Shown piece by piece: positions 17,134-50,391 of a DNA stretch of 64,000 nt (positions are counted from its first letter, which is position 1; each line of letters starts with the position of its first letter). A program made the position numbers and the translations under genes. A model generated the notes under the pieces. That model worked only from the letters and a program-made list of their open reading frames with translations, did not search any database and was not told where the DNA came from. The stretch is from Candidatus Saccharimonadota bacterium. GTDB lineage: Bacteria; Patescibacteriota; Saccharimonadia; Saccharimonadales; UBA10212. Location: positions 11,989 through 75,988 of the forward strand of contig JACPKG010000022.1 of the NCBI GenBank assembly GCA_016187175.1, given 5' to 3'.

Positions 17134-17263
17134 TAAAACTCCTTTATACAAAAAATCCTTGGCCTAAAAATACCAAAGATCTATTACAAGCTAGTAGTTT
17201 GTAACCTCGGCGACATTATTAATCCGCCTCAGGCGGACGTCGCTGTCTTTGGCAACTAGCAAT

Positions 17264-17292
17264 AATCTAGCATATCTGCGGGGCGATGGCAA
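17264..17292 (-). promoter_or_regulatory. candidate sigma70-type promoter of rplJ-rplL (TTGCCA-17-TAGATT), followed by a ~125-nt leader
   Basis: Minus sense reads TTGCCAtcgccccgcagatatgcTAGATT. The leader contains the hairpin CCGCC-TGA-GGCGG and may be an L10-leader analogue. Confidence 0.4.
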
Positions 17293-34190: not shown

Positions 34191-34289
34191 AAACAGCCTC
34201 CAGCTGTAGAATTGGGAATTGTGAAACACGAAATACGAATTCTTGTTTCATGTTTCTTGTTTCATGTTTCATGAAAATGTTACACACTT

Positions 34290-34748
34290 TTAGTTCCTTT
34301 TCGCCTTTCGAGGTCGGGTGCCTCCGTGCGGAACACCAGTTACGTCCTTAATACTGTCAACTTCAATCCGCTGGGCCACTAGTGTTCTAATGGCTGCTTC
34401 TCGTCCTAGGCCGACTCCTTGAACAAAGACATCGACCCTACTGACTCCGAATGTTTTAGCCGCTGCCAAAGCCTTTTCGGCAGCGACCTGCGCGGCATAG
34501 GCTGTACCTTTTTTAGATCCGCGAAATCCAATACTACCAGCGCTGGATGATGCGAGAGTGTTACCTTTATCGTCTGTCACGGTAATGATCGTGTTATTAA
34601 AGGTCGCCAAAACATGCACCTGGGCGCGGCTAACACTGCGACGGACTTTTTTTCGCTTGGTAGCTTTAGGCTTTATCTCGGTTATGGAGGCTTGTTCGTC
34701 AGTCGCAGTTGGTATCACCTCATTCTTCATTCTGCCAATGCCTTGCAT
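34290..34748 (-). CDS. rpsK: 30S ribosomal protein uS11 (N-terminally extended)
   Basis: Canonical uS11 core from VHVLATFNNT onward. Confidence 0.93.
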   Translation of the reverse strand: MQGIGRMKNEVIPTATDEQASITEIKPKATKRKKVRRSVSRAQVHVLATFNNTIITVTDDKGNTLASSSAGSIGFRGSKKGTAYAAQVAAEKALAAAKTFGVSRVDVFVQGVGLGREAAIRTLVAQRIEVDSIKDVTGVPHGGTRPRKAKRN

Positions 34749-44130: not shown

Positions 44131-44239
44131 CTCTTCGCTCCTTCGTCGTTCGGTAACAAGTAACAAACAATAAGTAACAAGTTATATTTGATGAAATTAT
44201 GCAGCAGTCCTTGTTGCATGTTACATGTTGCCTGTTGCT

Positions 44240-44260
44240 TAAAAATGCTTTGCATTTTTA
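44240..44260. repeat. AT-rich stop-codon palindrome TAAAAATGC-n3-GCATTTTTA (rplB stop)
   Basis: 9-bp perfect inverted repeat that includes the rplB TAA. The same arms occur at 45496..45516. Confidence 0.65.
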
Positions 44261-45417: not shown

Positions 45418-45495
45418 CAGCTCTCTCCTTTCGCTGTAACAGGTAGCTAGTAATAAGTAACAAGCTATGTTGCCCGTTGCGTTTTACATGTTGCT

Positions 45496-45516
45496 TAAAA
45501 ATGCTACGCATTTTTA
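45496..45516. repeat. AT-rich stop-codon palindrome TAAAAATGC-n3-GCATTTTTA (rplD stop)
   Basis: Arms identical to 44240..44260. The rplD TAG lies in the loop, and the flanking AGCAACATGTAA is also shared. Confidence 0.65.
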
Positions 45517-46207: not shown

Positions 46208-46843
46208 TCATTTTTCTACTCCTCTGAGTAAGACAACTCCTTTTCTGGGACCTGGTACGGCGCCTTTGACGCCAATAACATTGAGGTCCGTATCGACAAT
46301 GGCGATCTTAAGGTTGCGGGTAGTTATTTGTGTGTGGCCCATCTGGCCAGCCATTTTCTTACCTGGAAAGATACGCTGTGGGAACATCGAACCAATTGAA
46401 CCAGGCCGGCGATAGCTTCGACCACCATGAGTTTTGCGTCCGCGGTGGAAATTATGGCGTTTAATCGTGCCGGCAAAACCCTTGCCCTTACTGATACCTG
46501 TCACTTTGACAACATCGCCGACGGAAAAAGAATCGGCGGCCAATTGGTCGCCGACTTTCAGGCTTAAGCCATCACCTTCCGCAATGCGAAATTCGCGTAC
46601 AATCTTCGGTGATCCGCCAACTGGCGGATTTGAGGCTTTAAAATGACCAGCTTGTGGCTTAGCTGGTCGTTTGTTGGCTTCGAAACCGAGTTGCAGGGCG
46701 CGATAACCGTCTGTGTCAGCGTTCTTAATCTGCGTAACCACATTGGAGCTGGCCGAAAGCAGGGTCACAGGCGTAGCTGCACCCTTCTCGTCCAGGATGC
46801 TGGTCATGCCAAGTTTTCTGGTGATCAGCGCTTTCACTGACAA
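46208..46843 (-). CDS. rplC: 50S ribosomal protein uL3
   Basis: Canonical uL3; TTG (46843) or GTG (46837) start. Confidence 0.95.
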   Translation of the reverse strand: MSVKALITRKLGMTSILDEKGAATPVTLLSASSNVVTQIKNADTDGYRALQLGFEANKRPAKPQAGHFKASNPPVGGSPKIVREFRIAEGDGLSLKVGDQLAADSFSVGDVVKVTGISKGKGFAGTIKRHNFHRGRKTHGGRSYRRPGSIGSMFPQRIFPGKKMAGQMGHTQITTRNLKIAIVDTDLNVIGVKGAVPGPRKGVVLLRGVEK

Positions 46844-46972
46844 TTCGCCCCTTCAAATAGTTATTGATAGTTAATACTACTGTCATATTTGACTATAAAT
46901 ACACATTAGGATAAGTCTGCATTTAGGTGGCAACCCAAAGCAGGACCCAGCTCCAAATGCTGTATCCATAAC

Positions 46973-47002
46973 AGATTACCACAAATAGCTGACAAGTGTC
47001 AA
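46973..47002 (-). promoter_or_regulatory. candidate promoter for rplC and downstream genes: TTGACA-18-TGgTAATCT (extended -10)
   Basis: Minus sense reads TTGACActtgtcagctatttgTGgTAATCT, about 130 nt upstream of rplC. The leader contains the hairpin GCATTTGG...CCTAAATGC. Confidence 0.45.
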
Positions 47003-47506
47003 TCCGCTGTAAAAATCACTCCAGTCGCAAAAATACCGAACGCGACCCCACCGTGAATAGCTGATTGTCAAAAATAAGTTTGGTCTTGGCACTCCTCGTA
47101 ATTCAGCCACTGGCTAATTTACTCGTCAAACAGCCAATGCCAGCCAAGCTCATTTATTTATTGACAACATCTAATCAGGGCTCGGCAGATGTTCGGATAT
47201 TTTGCGACTCTCGTTCAACAAAATACTTGACTAGTTAAGGATCTATATGCTCTTCTGGTCACAAGGCTAATCAGTGAGTACTCAAGGTAAATAAATCCTG
47301 GGTAAAACATAACTCAAGGTTAACAAGCGAGCCCTATCTTTCTTCTGGGCACCGGAGACAACATGAGTAGATGTTGTTTATAAAGAGGCGTACTTGGTCA
47401 CTAAAGCATGTTCGACGAAGCAAAGTTGCCAGTGGCAACTTTGTGAGGAGTTCTTTAGCGAGCCTGTTTTAAACAACAGATACATCAAGTTGGTCGACGC
47501 GTCCGG

Positions 47507-47555
47507 AAAAAGATAGGGCGAGCGACCCCTCACATTTTGATTTCGGCGCTTGCCC
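47507..47555 (-). terminator. possible terminator after rpsJ
   Basis: Minus sense reads GGGCAAGCG-loop-CGCTCGCCC (8/9 pairs), followed by TATCTTTTT. The loop is large (~22 nt), so this call is weak. Confidence 0.3.
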
Positions 47556-47632
47556 CGCACTAAAACCTGAGCGGAACAGTCTGCAATCAGATTGTGGAGC
47601 TTCAAGTTTTAGTACTGGGGTCGCAGCCGTGT

Positions 47633-48157
47633 TCACATCTTAATCTCAGCGTCGCAGCCAGCGGGTAGACTGAGATTCATAAGAGAGTCGACGGTTTTCG
47701 GGGTTGGATCGCTAATATCAATCAGGCGCTTGTGGACACGCATTTCGAACTGCTCGCGACCCTTTTTGTAAACGTGCGGGCTTTTAACAACTGTAAACGT
47801 ACTTTTACGTGTCGGTAAAGGAATCGGCCCAGCTATGGTGGCACCCGTACGCAAGGCTGTCTCTACGATTTGTTTAGCCGACTGGTCAATAACCTTATGG
47901 TCATAAGCCTTAAGACGGATTCGTATTCTTTGTTTGGGCTCATCAGATGATTGCCGCTCTCTAGAAGTAGAAGCCTTTGGCTTCACTACGGGACTCCGCC
48001 GCCCACCCTTCGAGCCATTCGACTCGTCAGTTGCAGGCTCAGGGTCGCCCTGTCTTCGACTCCGAGGTTGCTCAGACTCGAGGAGAGTCTGTCGAATGGG
48101 CGACGAGCTCAGGGTTTTGCTTCGCTTGATTGCCGACTGTTTTTTTGTGTCTGCCAT
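47633..48157 (-). CDS. rpsJ: 30S ribosomal protein uS10 with ~70-aa basic/Ser-rich N-terminal extension
   Basis: The canonical uS10 core starts at [12 protein letters not shown]. There is no in-frame ATG, GTG or TTG near the core. Confidence 0.9.
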
Positions 48158-49485: not shown

Positions 49486-50391
49486 TTATCGCTTGAGACA
49501 ATCTTCGGCATGTTCGACATGCACACCTTTATCTTTCAATTGCCTCTTTACCATACTAGACAAAACATCTCCATGGCCAAATTCGCGAAATTGCCTTACT
49601 CCGGCTTCATAAAGTTCTTCAACACTTTGGCTCCATCTAACAGGTAGCTTTAACTGATTAGGATAAGCATCCTTAAGCTGGTCCGCTAGTGTGATAATCC
49701 TTCCAATGTTTGCGGCTATGGGAACTGAAGGATCTTTAACCCTAATACTGTTCATAAATCGCGCAACTCTCTCGATACCTCCTGACATAAGTGGCGAGTG
49801 TGCCGGTATCGTTACGCCTAACACTACAGTTCGCCTGGCTCCTTCTTCGTTTGCCTCTTCTATAGTTCTGTCAACTTCGTCATTTCCTCCAGAAACTACA
49901 ATTTGTTGGTCGGGAATATTATAATTTGCTACAACCGAACCGTTATTTGCGGTAATCCGTTCAACTACTGCATCTTTTAAGCCAAGGATTGCTGCCATTT
50001 TCCCGGGATGACGTTTGCCTTCCTCCTCCATTGTTAAGCCGCGCTCATTAACCCATGCAAGCGCGTCTTCTTCATCTATTGCATCGGCGGCTACAGCAGC
50101 CGCTCCTTCGCCGACGCTGTGACCTATTACATAATCTGGGATTTCAGCCTTGTGTCGTTTTCTGTAGACAGCCAATAGGCCGAGAGAGACGGCGACTACG
50201 GCGATCTGAGTGTTAGAAGTTCGGTCCAGGAATTCTTTTGGCCCGTTCCGCATCATTCCACTTATAGGTCTGCCCGTAATGCGATCGGCTCTTGTAATTA
50301 CTGCTAAGAATTCAGGAAATGCATCCATCAGTTCTCTAGCCATACCAACTTCCTGCGTTCCCTGCCCTGAGAACATCCATGCTTTTTTCAT
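49486..50391 (-). CDS. FabD-like acyltransferase (malonyl-CoA:ACP transacylase family)
   Basis: Family blocks FSGQGTQ, GHSVGE (active-site Ser), MAAILGL, ANYNIPDQQIVVSG, PAHSPLM and VRWSQSVE. It starts 14 nt after the fusA stop. Confidence 0.8.
   Translation of the reverse strand: MKKAWMFSGQGTQEVGMARELMDAFPEFLAVITRADRITGRPISGMMRNGPKEFLDRTSNTQIAVVAVSLGLLAVYRKRHKAEIPDYVIGHSVGEGAAAVAADAIDEEDALAWVNERGLTMEEEGKRHPGKMAAILGLKDAVVERITANNGSVVANYNIPDQQIVVSGGNDEVDRTIEEANEEGARRTVVLGVTIPAHSPLMSGGIERVARFMNSIRVKDPSVPIAANIGRIITLADQLKDAYPNQLKLPVRWSQSVEELYEAGVRQFREFGHGDVLSSMVKRQLKDKGVHVEHAEDCLKR

Follow-up and report, generated by a model that had tools for sequence, protein, structure and literature searches.

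The 795-nt gap between rpsJ and rplC in the analysed window (the whole 64,000-nt stretch of Candidatus Saccharimonadota DNA) is a mosaic of at least five modules whose evolutionary histories differ. These are module A, a weak terminator, two rod-like palindromes (W2 and W1), the rplC promoter, and a leader of about 130 nt. On balance, we read the gap, with modest confidence, as an operon boundary where 3'-UTR or terminator hairpins are followed by an autonomous, attenuator-regulated rplC operon. The tuf-rpsJ transcript would enter a hairpin-rich 3' region consisting of the stem-loop of module A, the terminator-like site T1, and W2, with W1 as an inverted duplicate, and these hairpins would most likely stop, insulate, or stabilise that transcript. 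A conserved sigma-70-type promoter with an extended -10 would then start the rplC-rplD-rplW-rplB... operon. Its leader is predicted to fold as a hairpin and probably acts as a ribosomal-protein-responsive (L4-type) attenuator, by analogy with the covarying, terminator-like leader that precedes rplC in most Saccharibacteria. A sequence-only reading of the window had proposed a single insert, possibly one undescribed ncRNA, and the modular composition of the gap contradicts this. The features are listed in Table 1.

Table 1. Features of the rpsJ-rplC region, in window coordinates.
Feature	Position	Strand	Basis or remarks
rpsJ (uS10) ORF	47633..48157	-	tblastn 85-98% identity to relatives
Module A, ~103-nt insertion at the rpsJ 3' end	47530..47632	-	filled and empty sites of relatives
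Module A two-level hairpin, 72 nt	47548..47619	-	z -5.2; RNAalifold, 28 pairs
T1, weak terminator-like hairpin and U-run (GGGGTCGCTCGCCCTATCTTTTTCC)	47505..47529	-	terminator scan, 5 pairs
W2, rod-like imperfect palindrome, ~205 nt	47318..47523	- (operon orientation)	z -7.2
Inter-rod linker	47229..47317		z -0.4, no excess structure; short direct repeat ACTCAAGGT
W1, inverted second palindrome copy	47020..47228	+	+ strand aligns to L093 + strand
Opposite-strand promoter-like site	46989..47016	+	CTGACA-16-AAAAAT preceded by TG; consensus match only
rplC-operon promoter	46973..47002	-	TTGACA-18-TGgTAATCT, extended -10
rplC leader (5' UTR), ~130 nt	46838..46966	-	MFE fold, clade identity
rplC (uL3)	46208..46837	-	start GTG 46837

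Gap boundaries and the split of rpsJ from rplC

The rpsJ and rplC genes are adjacent in the textbook S10 operon. The rpsJ ORF of the window ends with ...GGC TGC GAC GCT GAG ATT AAG ATG TGA, and the conserved S10 domain of uS10 is its C-terminal ~104 aa. The gap had been given as 789 bp with a TTG start of uL3 at 46843. The gap is present, and that start is probably 6 nt too far upstream. The start region (A/G)TGAAAGC is kept in all relatives, and uL3 from GTG 46837 is the product recorded in the assembly gene calls; rplC is therefore taken to start there, and the gap spans 46838-47632 (795 nt). Neither the TTG-start uL3 nor the 174-aa uS10 was on record in an exact-protein look-up.

The gap is real. 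The window agrees with three Logan contigs at 100% identity over the whole gap. These contigs stem from different sequencing runs, and because three independent assemblies reproduce the gap base for base, it is not the assembly artefact that had been considered possible.

The split is the rule in Saccharibacteria and is not peculiar to the window genome. The gap between rpsJ and rplC is 155-3874 bp (median 1212) in 82 Saccharibacteria loci, rpsJ is inverted in nine further loci, and the median gap in the outgroups is ~34 bp. Accessory genes usually lie inside the gaps of relatives, so the fully non-coding 0.8 kb of the window is still on the unusual side. Its retention had been called remarkable; this holds to the extent that a wholly non-coding gap is somewhat unusual, but the split itself is lineage-wide. 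A literature search found no described Saccharibacteria S10-operon split or leader.

The promoter and leader of rplC

The promoter that had been noticed facing rplC (TTGACA, 18-nt spacer, and TGgTAATCT) is present and is the best-conserved piece of the gap. Its TTGACA lies at 47002-46997 and its -10 at 46978-46973, about 18 nt past W1. The operon had been described as split both physically and transcriptionally. The physical split stands, and the transcriptional part is favoured by this predicted rplC-proximal promoter, whose pattern TTGACN-N17-20-TGnTANNNT is matched in 84 of the 126 distinct rplC upstream regions from Saccharibacteria. The promoter and leader together form the part of the gap that is kept in all close relatives (76-79% identity). 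The MFE fold of the leader exhibits one 71-nt hairpin (46967-46897) followed by AUAG, and the SD (AAGGGG) is found at 46853-46848.

Most Saccharibacteria have a covarying, terminator-like leader before rplC. The covariance model R1 was defined in this work for that leader and describes the motif CUUGG...GGU-hairpin-AACAGRGGUAGAAACC...CCAAG-CAUUUUUAU, which is found in ~85 loci, always on the operon strand and immediately 5' of rplC. P1 of this motif is CUUGG/CCAAG, and GG/CC pairs and a downstream U-run also belong to it. In the R1 alignment, 94% of the cells are paired, both-side changes are found in 100 cells compared with 30 in shuffles, and the covariation signal collapses in the slid-partner controls. 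The motif is absent from Rfam 15.

The clade of the window has a divergent version of this leader. The window leader occupies the same position as R1, directly downstream of TTGACA/TGnTAATCT and 5' of rplC on the operon strand, and its likeness to R1 is a hand-made analogy only, where GUC(C)UGC/GCAGAC is set against UCUGC/GUAGA. R1 did not match the window leader with filters off, nor the window-clade loci (L087, L093, and L164-L180) at E <=1. The best window match of R1 is the core of W1 (14.5 bits), which we read as generic terminator likeness and not homology. RNAalifold of 11 window-clade leaders exhibited no covariation, the window disrupts 7 of the 12 consensus pairs, and the folding z-score of the window-clade leader is only -1.9. 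The missing R1 match, the missing covariation, and this z-score count against the regulatory-leader reading. We suggest that the divergent leader may still regulate, with L4 as the likely binding protein.

The E. coli-type S10 leader acts through L4/NusA-dependent attenuation and translational repression. Like the L4 leader of E. coli and Gammaproteobacteria, the rplC leader is structured, includes a terminator-like hairpin with a U-run, and stands at the head of rplC-rplD-rplW-rplB..., and since the operon encodes L4, autoregulation would be a natural function. The E. coli leader lies ahead of rpsJ, forms five hairpins, and is found only in Gammaproteobacteria (PMC3616713). In contrast, the predicted leader and promoter in this work lie between rpsJ and rplC, rpsJ is outside the unit, and no sequence or Rfam similarity to the E. 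coli leader is exhibited. The L4 r-leader candidate of Archaeoglobi lies directly upstream of rplC, rplD, rplW, and rplB, and both this candidate and the S10 r-leader of Firmicutes were found by comparative genomics (Eckert & Weinberg, 2020; PMC7247131). R1 likewise adjoins rplC and was likewise found by comparative genomics, but the r-leaders belong to other lineages, have other structures, and are not matched through Rfam 15 in the window or in 10 relatives. A term search of the main text of PMC7247131 found no mention of a Saccharibacteria motif.

Hairpin modules between rpsJ and the promoter

The description of the region as non-coding and structure-rich was borne out. The only ORF of at least 60 aa on the operon strand of the gap is a 75-aa TTG ORF, which had already been judged random-looking, and the opposite strand holds a 57-aa ORF. 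A Pfam search with four gap ORFs found no match, and no credible ORF is present in the gap. The gap folds far better than dinucleotide shuffles, with z-scores of -7.6 (operon sense) and -9.3 (antisense) for the whole gap. The coding controls have z-scores of -1.6 (rplC CDS) and -0.4 (795 nt of tuf). The folding signal is concentrated in three modules (z -5.2, -7.2, and -5.5). A tRNA/tmRNA scan found none within the gap, and an Rfam scan under gathering and E-value thresholds found no family there. The Rfam search that had been suggested earlier gave nothing at E <=10 in 46600-47900 with Rfam 15, and nothing at E <=0.1 in 10 relatives.

Module A consists, in order, of ACAC, the fossil GGCTGCGAC (47620-47628), the 72-nt hairpin, and the fossil GCC GAA ATC AAA ATG TGA (47530-47547). 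The last rpsJ codons are thus present a second time, as a 'fossil' copy that the hairpin interrupts. Module A is 84-90% identical in L164, L168, L177, L085, and L178, and it is absent from L093, L179, L169, and L172, where the site is empty and uninterrupted. The reading frame across module A is not kept in relatives. The upstream rpsJ end has its own codon usage, which is common to all carriers of module A, and the downstream fossil end resembles the alleles of empty sites; the two ends differ at synonymous sites only. Compensatory changes are found in 2 of the 28 pairs predicted by RNAalifold for the hairpin, and U.G wobbles are conserved on the operon strand.

These features of module A bear on an alternative that we regard as rather unlikely, where module A, W1, and W2 are non-autonomous mobile or selfish palindromes (MITE-, ERIC-, or REP-like, or miniature integrative elements) that accumulated because this operon boundary tolerates them, and any terminator effect is incidental. 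It is favoured by the patchy presence of module A among close relatives with precise empty sites, and by the replacement rpsJ end that module A brings, since its synonymous-only differences from the fossil are those of att-type duplications. It is also favoured by the unrelated hairpins of L133 and L134, which are flanked by the same kind of rpsJ-end duplication, and by a multi-copy family of ~95-nt inserts in other Saccharibacteria, whose copies occupy various ribosomal-protein gene junctions and come with junction duplications of 22-24 nt. Integrative elements at tRNA and tmRNA genes target the 3' end of the gene and bring a replacement end (att duplication). Module A resembles them in the doubled rpsJ end and the empty sites of close relatives. 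Unlike them, it is an insert of only ~100 nt without an integrase, no attL/attR is defined, and its fossil end is split by a hairpin, which a simple attL/attR model does not predict. No integrase or recombinase ORF (Pfam) and no transposase were found in the gap.

In L093 and L172, the ortholog of T1 immediately follows the real rpsJ stop. The U-rich part of T1 doubles as the 5' arm of the W2 closing stem. The weak terminator that had been proposed after rpsJ is found as this terminator-like site (47529-47505), which passes a simple terminator scan with 5 pairs, but scan sites are no commoner in the gap than in shuffles.

By position, W2 corresponds to L093 1454-1664, its ortholog. The long-range complementarity pointed out earlier, an 11-nt perfect pair at 47331-41/47509-19, closes the stem of W2, and the perfect hairpin, an 11-nt perfect inverted repeat at 47421-47431/47433-47443, is its terminal hairpin (47421-47443). 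The two 7-bp hairpins were likewise found in the sequence. W1 is 80% identical to the L093 copy and ~60% identical to W2, with a terminal hairpin at ~47098-47122. The 19-nt inverted-repeat pair at 47023-41/47191-209 is present (84% complementary), but it is simply the closing stem of this long palindrome. The rods fold as long hairpins on either strand (z -5.3 to -8.3), and the three rod copies exhibit compensatory changes in 25 of 65 pairs, among them a full exchange of A-run and U-run in the closing stem.

After rpsJ, one and the same site carries W2, the L093 rod, and the shorter rods of L164 and L172, and the flanks of these rods are homologous (CGCTCGCnCC ... GnGCTCGCTT). The strong compensatory evolution and the homologous flanks at one site clade-wide suggest vertical inheritance under structural selection, which argues against mobile palindromes. 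In L178 and L179, the promoter is closely preceded by a long hairpin of another kind (z -5.0 and -7.5). A long hairpin thus lies between the preceding gene and the promoter in every clade member examined in detail, where the folding of the promoter-upstream region covered all of them but L169. Over Saccharibacteria as a whole, only 8% of the loci have z < -3 in the 200 nt upstream of the promoter, and long hairpins at this position are thus not universal, which counts against the operon-boundary reading.

The mobile reading draws further on the inverted orientation of W1 and W2, on W1 being nearer to the L093 copy than to W2, and on GCTCGC on both flanks of the W2-type rods, a possible target-site duplication for which no W empty site was found. 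ERIC/IRU, REP/BIME, and Correia elements are palindromic repeats that are co-transcribed with operons, and families of the ERIC, REP, Correia, and MITE types have tens to hundreds of dispersed copies. The W rods resemble these elements as rod-like, non-coding, intergenic imperfect palindromes of 100-200 nt that occur in either orientation and are patchy among relatives. They differ in having two copies in 64 kb at one site, with neither a clear TIR/TSD signature nor a cognate transposase. The MITE-type features that were found are terminal inverted repeats of 19 nt (84%) and 11 nt (100%), a length of ~200 nt, and no Pfam match; dispersed copies were not found in the 64 kb and 180 related loci. 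The window holds only W1, W2, and one copy of module A, all within this gap, and blastn and nhmmer searches of the window and the 180 loci found no further W copies apart from L093. The collections of phages, plasmids, and viruses also gave no match (blastn and viral-contig pattern scans). The term 'decayed or MITE-like mobile element' describes part of the gap.

A further suggestion, which we consider unlikely and put forward tentatively, is that Saccharibacteria may harbour miniature (~50-200 nt), integrase-less hairpin elements that are site-specific at the 3' ends or junctions of ribosomal-protein genes. Such elements would duplicate or replace ~18-27 nt at the end of the gene, and the encoded protein would be intact whether a site is filled or empty. 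Module A, the hairpins of L133 and L134, and the multi-copy ~95-nt junction inserts would be members, and the W rods may be related. The rpsJ/rplC gap would then be a nest of elements, some of them co-opted as terminators.

The terminator function preferred above for the hairpins also meets contrary evidence. The A-rich/U-rich tracts beside the inner rod hairpins resemble bidirectional intrinsic terminators, where A-tract/U-tract pairing extends the stem, and the rods likewise lie between two transcription units. However, the rod stems have ~70-90 pairs, are AT-rich, and contain many bulges, and the U-rich tails do not directly adjoin a GC-rich stem. No rod terminates in a canonical GC stem with a U-run directly behind it, which counts against the terminator reading. 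The closer relationship of W1 to L093, though W2 has the 'right' orientation, is unexpected if the rods function as sense terminators only.

It is improbable that W1 encodes a stable, rod-shaped small RNA, with W2 as a second possible gene of this kind. On this reading, divergent transcription from 46989-47016 would yield W1, processing of the rpsJ 3' UTR would release W2 and the L093 copy, and the conserved unpaired ACUCCUC and UCGUCAAACA beside the terminal hairpin would form a binding surface. The ~190-nt rod has pairing 5' and 3' ends that are maintained by compensatory changes, conserved single-stranded blocks lie in the internal loop, and the L093-sense strand exhibits 11 G.U cells compared with 6 A.C cells. 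The promoter-like site places the predicted transcription start at the first base of W1 and of its closing stem, but this site is a consensus match inside a region conserved for the rplC promoter/UP element. In addition, no Rfam family matches (6S and SRP included), the rods do not have a 6S-type central bubble, they do not keep one orientation with respect to the genes around them, the identity of W2 has fallen to ~60% through decay, and the two strands fold about equally well.

Other candidates were considered, and most were rejected. For 6S RNA, there is no Rfam match and the one internal loop of appreciable size (8/11 nt) lies directly against the terminal hairpin. For an inverton, three independent assemblies have one orientation, the promoter lies outside the palindrome, and the inversion relative to L093 takes in the entire palindrome with its stems. 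CRISPR-like and retron structures were rejected on architecture or context. An integron attC would leave the target duplications unexplained, and the rods are longer than a typical attC.

It is highly improbable that the gap is a decayed protein gene or one vastly enlarged L4 leader. In the closest relatives, whose uL3 is 82-87% identical, a Peptidase_M29 gene and a small ORF do lie between rpsJ and rplC, and an intact gene in relatives had been named as the finding that would indicate a pseudogene remnant, but tblastn with these proteins and with all gap ORFs from 80 loci returned noise only and no M29 remnant, tblastx of the gap matched the promoter alone, and the promoter is ~165 nt from rplC, so that the leader is at most ~130 nt and 620 nt of the gap lie upstream of the transcription start. 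The leader part of the earlier proposal of a greatly expanded autoregulatory leader is plausible, but at ~130 nt and not 0.8 kb.

Meaning for Saccharibacteria

The textbook S10 operon is routinely broken after rpsJ in Saccharibacteria and perhaps in CPR more widely. Annotation calls for caution, and the 0.8 kb in the window should be labelled neither a pseudogene nor a single ncRNA. The hairpin inserts, if mobile, would represent an undescribed route for tiny elements to enter essential operons without harm, and would explain why the junction is a hot spot of accessory genes. In this lineage, a conserved promoter serves rplC...rpsQ alone. The covarying, terminator-like leader in front of these genes has no entry in Rfam and can be tested as a candidate for autoregulation by ribosomal proteins in a phylum whose regulatory repertoires are minimal.

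Limits and content of the rpsJ-rplC gap

The genes run on the minus strand in the order fusA, a fabD-like gene, tuf, rpsJ, the gap, rplC, rplD, rplW, rplB, rpsS, and onward. The rpsJ gene (uS10) ends at 47633. The rplC gene (uL3) most likely starts at GTG 46837 rather than at TTG 46843, the start chosen in the sequence-only reading, since (A/G)TGAAAGC at the rplC start is kept in all relatives and the product from 46837 is the one recorded in the assembly gene calls. The gap therefore covers 46838-47632 (795 nt).

The earlier observation that the gap is non-coding and structured is confirmed. The ORFs of the gap gave no match to Pfam. The gap folds much more stably than dinucleotide shuffles, with z = -7.6 in operon sense and -9.3 in antisense, while the coding controls gave -1.6 (rplC) and -0.4 (tuf). 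The gap sequence recurs with 100% identity in three Logan contigs of different sequencing runs, thus an assembly artefact is rejected. The previously listed inverted repeats (I3, I9, and I10), both 7-bp hairpins, the promoter, and the weak terminator-like site after rpsJ were all found in the window.

The Acyl_transf_1 (FabD-like) gene is a further departure from the classical str-operon order. The same arrangement of fusA, Acyl_transf_1, and tuf is found in L178, and L169 has the Acyl_transf_1 gene immediately 5' of tuf. The uS10 ORF (174 aa in total) has a basic, low-complexity N-terminal extension of ~70 aa. In relatives, the S10 of the gene calls has 111 aa, and another ORF of 72-133 aa, unrelated to the extension, lies between tuf and rpsJ.

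The uL3 relatives are without exception Candidatus Saccharibacteria/Saccharimonadales. The rpsJ gene lies upstream on the same strand in 82 Saccharibacteria loci (gap 155-3874 bp, median 1212 bp), is inverted in nine, and is not present within at least 1.5 kb in 19. The median gap of 24 outgroup loci is 34 bp. The physical split of rpsJ from rplC is thus a lineage trait. The gaps of relatives usually contain small genes of variable kind that are encoded on the operon strand. The split operon that had been proposed is hence confirmed, but as typical for the phylum and not as an oddity of this genome. The closest relatives (uL3 82-87% identical) have a Peptidase_M29 gene and a small ORF in the gap, and another relative has a cupin-like ORF. 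This junction acts like a hot spot where accessory genes insert. The peculiarity of the window itself is that its gap is non-coding throughout. A pseudogene is rejected, as no remnant of the Peptidase_M29 gene, the small ORF, or the cupin-like ORF was detectable in the window gap.

Hairpin modules of the gap

The gap, which had been taken as one element, consists of several modules (module A, T1, W2, W1, the promoter, and the leader). Their coordinates are shown in the table together with those of related features.

Coordinates of features in the window and in the loci of relatives (L numbers)
Feature	Locus	Coordinates	Strand or orientation	Description
Module A	window	47632-47530	operon sense	directly after rpsJ stop; ACAC + GGCTGCGAC, 72-nt two-level hairpin, then GCC GAA ATC AAA ATG TGA
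T1	window	47529-47505	operon sense	weak terminator-like hairpin + U-run
W2	window	47523-47318	operon sense	copy of ~200-nt imperfect palindrome
W1	window	47228-47020	opposite to W2	palindrome copy
rplC promoter	window	47002-46973	operon sense	TTGACA-18-TGgTAATCT
Leader	window	~46966-46838		MFE: single 71-nt hairpin from predicted +1, then AUAG..., Shine-Dalgarno-type AAGGGG, GTG
Inter-cistronic inserts	window	45419-45516, 44174-44260; weak 34234-34292	-	rplD/rplW, rplB/rpsS; weakly rpsK/rpsD
uS10 N-terminal extension	window	47946-48157		
Acyl_transf_1 gene	window	49486-50391	-	between fusA and tuf
Rfam L10_leader	window	17141-17270	-	50.7 bits
R1 matches (examples)	L101; L032	3357-3439; 930-1012		
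Peptidase_M29 (aminopeptidase) gene	L164; L168; L169; L172; L177; L043	523-1671; 1297-2508; 2226-3437; 1254-2465; 1316-2527; 2287-3498		382-403 aa, between rpsJ and rplC
rpsJ-end duplication	L133; L134	2089-2150; 2139-2205		around unrelated hairpins
M29 gene-end duplication	L169	3437-3606		hairpin-forming insert between
~95-nt insert family	L020; L112; L128; L025; L018	4629-4725; 4129-4225; 4097-4188 and 5303-5380; 5338-5422; 4816-4897 and 5947-6045		
~95-nt insert family	L108; L029; L139			

Module A is an insertion of ~103 nt at the 3' end of rpsJ. It repeats the final 9+18 nt of the gene (G C D ... A E I K M stop) as a second copy, or fossil, that is interrupted by the hairpin. The block recurs with 84-90% identity in L164, L168, L177, L085, and L178. 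It is missing in L093, L179/L180, L169, and L172, where the gene end GAC GCC GAA ATA AAr ATG TAr is uninterrupted. L093 and L172 have the ortholog of T1 directly behind the true stop of their contiguous rpsJ end. The fossil is similar to these empty-site alleles, and the functional rpsJ end of all module A carriers has a distinct codon usage (GCT GAG/GAA ATT AAR). Differences between the fossils of different genomes are confined to synonymous positions and stop-codon swaps. No conserved ORF was found across module A. Its hairpin (z = -5.2) has 28 predicted pairs, two of them with compensatory changes, and U.G wobbles are conserved on the sense strand. Both kinds of gene-end duplication in other loci (see the table) repeat the last ~18-22 nt of the gene 40-150 nt downstream.

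W1 and W2 are separated by an unstructured linker of 89 nt. L093 (uL3 82% identical, entire gap ~400 bp) has a homologous rod in the position and orientation of W2. W1 matches the L093 copy at 80% identity in inverted orientation, and W2 is ~60% identical. The copies fold as rods on both strands (z -5.3 to -8.3). RNAalifold of the three copies gave 65 pairs, of which 25 have compensatory double changes. The terminal hairpin (10-11 bp) has three unrelated sequences among the three copies, the closing stem exhibits an A-run/U-run swap between copies, and ACUCCUC and UCGUCAAACA beside the terminal hairpin are unpaired and conserved. The 19-nt inverted repeat that had been described as MITE-like is the closing stem of W1. 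The 10-bp perfect hairpin and the CCCTATCTTT/AAAGATAGGG complementarity do exist, as the tip and the closing stem of W2, respectively. No additional W copies were found in the 64-kb window, the 180 related loci, or viral, phage, and plasmid collections.

Shorter rods in L164, L168, L177, and L172 occupy the same site and have these flanks in common (CGCTCGCnCC... / ...GnGCTCGCTT). In L178 and L179, a long hairpin of another kind lies immediately 5' of the promoter (z -5.0 and -7.5). The retained position of a long hairpin among clade members and the many compensatory changes both speak for selection on the structure. Short-read contigs of relatives stop 240-370 nt 5' of rplC (L175 1-30, L176 1-160, and L170 and L171 with rplC at 369), and the ends of L175 and L176 fall inside a long inverted repeat. 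These breaks are consistent with palindromes at that site.

A repeated insert of ~60-100 nt is also present at other ribosomal-protein junctions of the window. The copies have the block TAAAAATGCnnAGCATTTTTAAGCAACA in common. Each of the two strong copies contains a mini-ORF of 33-42 aa (M[RQ]SIFKQ...), which begins at the stop of the upstream gene, and its end overlaps the start of the next gene in the L081 gene calls.

Promoter and leader of rplC

Of the whole gap, only the promoter and the leader can still be recognised in more distant relatives, and they are 76-79% identical within the clade. Among 126 distinct upstream regions of rplC in Saccharibacteria, 84 contain a match to TTGACN-N17-20-TGnTANNNT, and TAATCT is the commonest -10. 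The -35 region (46989-47002) and its equivalents in L093, L164, and L179 form a conserved palindrome, TTGACAcTTnTCAr, with a -35-like hexamer on either strand. It may serve as a divergent promoter or as an operator.

Relatives with uL3 56-70% identical exhibit a conserved motif between promoter and rplC, in the order CUUGG, covarying stem, GGU, short hairpin, AACAGRGGUAGAAACC, covarying stem again, CCAAG, and CAUUUUUAU. The covariance model built from it (R1) matched ~85 loci (within L001-L163), every time on the operon strand and immediately 5' of rplC. Among 61 distinct hits, 94% of cells are paired. Cells changed on both sides numbered 100 compared with 30 in shuffles (0/500 shuffles reached 100), and pairing fell to 30-54% when the partners were slid. 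The motif is absent from Rfam 15. As modelled, it resembles a terminator hairpin whose internal loops are conserved, i.e., an attenuator with a putative protein-binding site. It is a candidate for a new ribosomal-protein leader and possibly responds to L4. The L4 leaders of Gammaproteobacteria lie before rpsJ (PMC3616713), whereas the Saccharibacteria motif precedes rplC. In the literature searched, an L4 candidate likewise before rplC is described for Archaeoglobi alone and an S10 leader for Firmicutes (PMC7247131), and no Saccharibacteria leader of the S10-operon kind was found. The L10_leader match exceeds the gathering score and thus demonstrates at least one detectable classical ribosomal-protein leader in the genome.

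R1 did not match the leaders of the window's clade, and an alignment of 11 clade sequences exhibited no covariation. Membership of the window leader in the R1 family is therefore not established. The clade leader retains the position and a hairpin, and an inner-stem analogue was identified by hand (GUC(C)UGC/GCAGAC in the window, GGUUUUG/CAAAACC in clade relatives, UCUGC/GUAGA in R1). By analogy with R1 and with L4 control in E. coli, the window leader is probably an autoregulatory attenuator.

Probable operon boundary and possibly mobile hairpins

The best-supported reading of the gap is an operon boundary between two transcription units. The tuf-rpsJ transcript would be ended or insulated by several hairpins in a row (the stem-loop of module A, T1, W2, and the inverted duplicate W1), and the operon that begins with rplC would be expressed from its own strong promoter beneath a structured leader. 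Three observations speak against a simple terminator role: the ends are not canonical (GC-stem and U-run), W1 is preserved better than W2, and only a minority of all Saccharibacteria have long hairpins 5' of the promoter.

In the main rival reading, the hairpin modules would be selfish or mobile mini-elements. Three observations speak for it: module A is patchy, with precise empty sites and a replacement gene end; unrelated small hairpins elsewhere are flanked by similar gene-end duplications; and the ~95-nt insert family of other Saccharibacteria is multi-copy at different ribosomal-protein junctions, in or near the operons and always on the operon strand. At rplC/rplD in L020/L112 and L128, the insert is bordered by a duplicated stretch of the junction, 22-24 nt in length. 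The operon-boundary and mobile-element readings are compatible with each other. W1 may also be an sRNA gene, for which there is a promoter-like site at 46989-47016. A single giant leader is rejected. The split operon, structured region, mobile-like pieces, and leader of the sequence-only interpretation are retained, but not the single element.

The two most valuable by-products of this work are the fossil rpsJ end that is split by a hairpin and the rplC leader motif that is found across Saccharibacteria.
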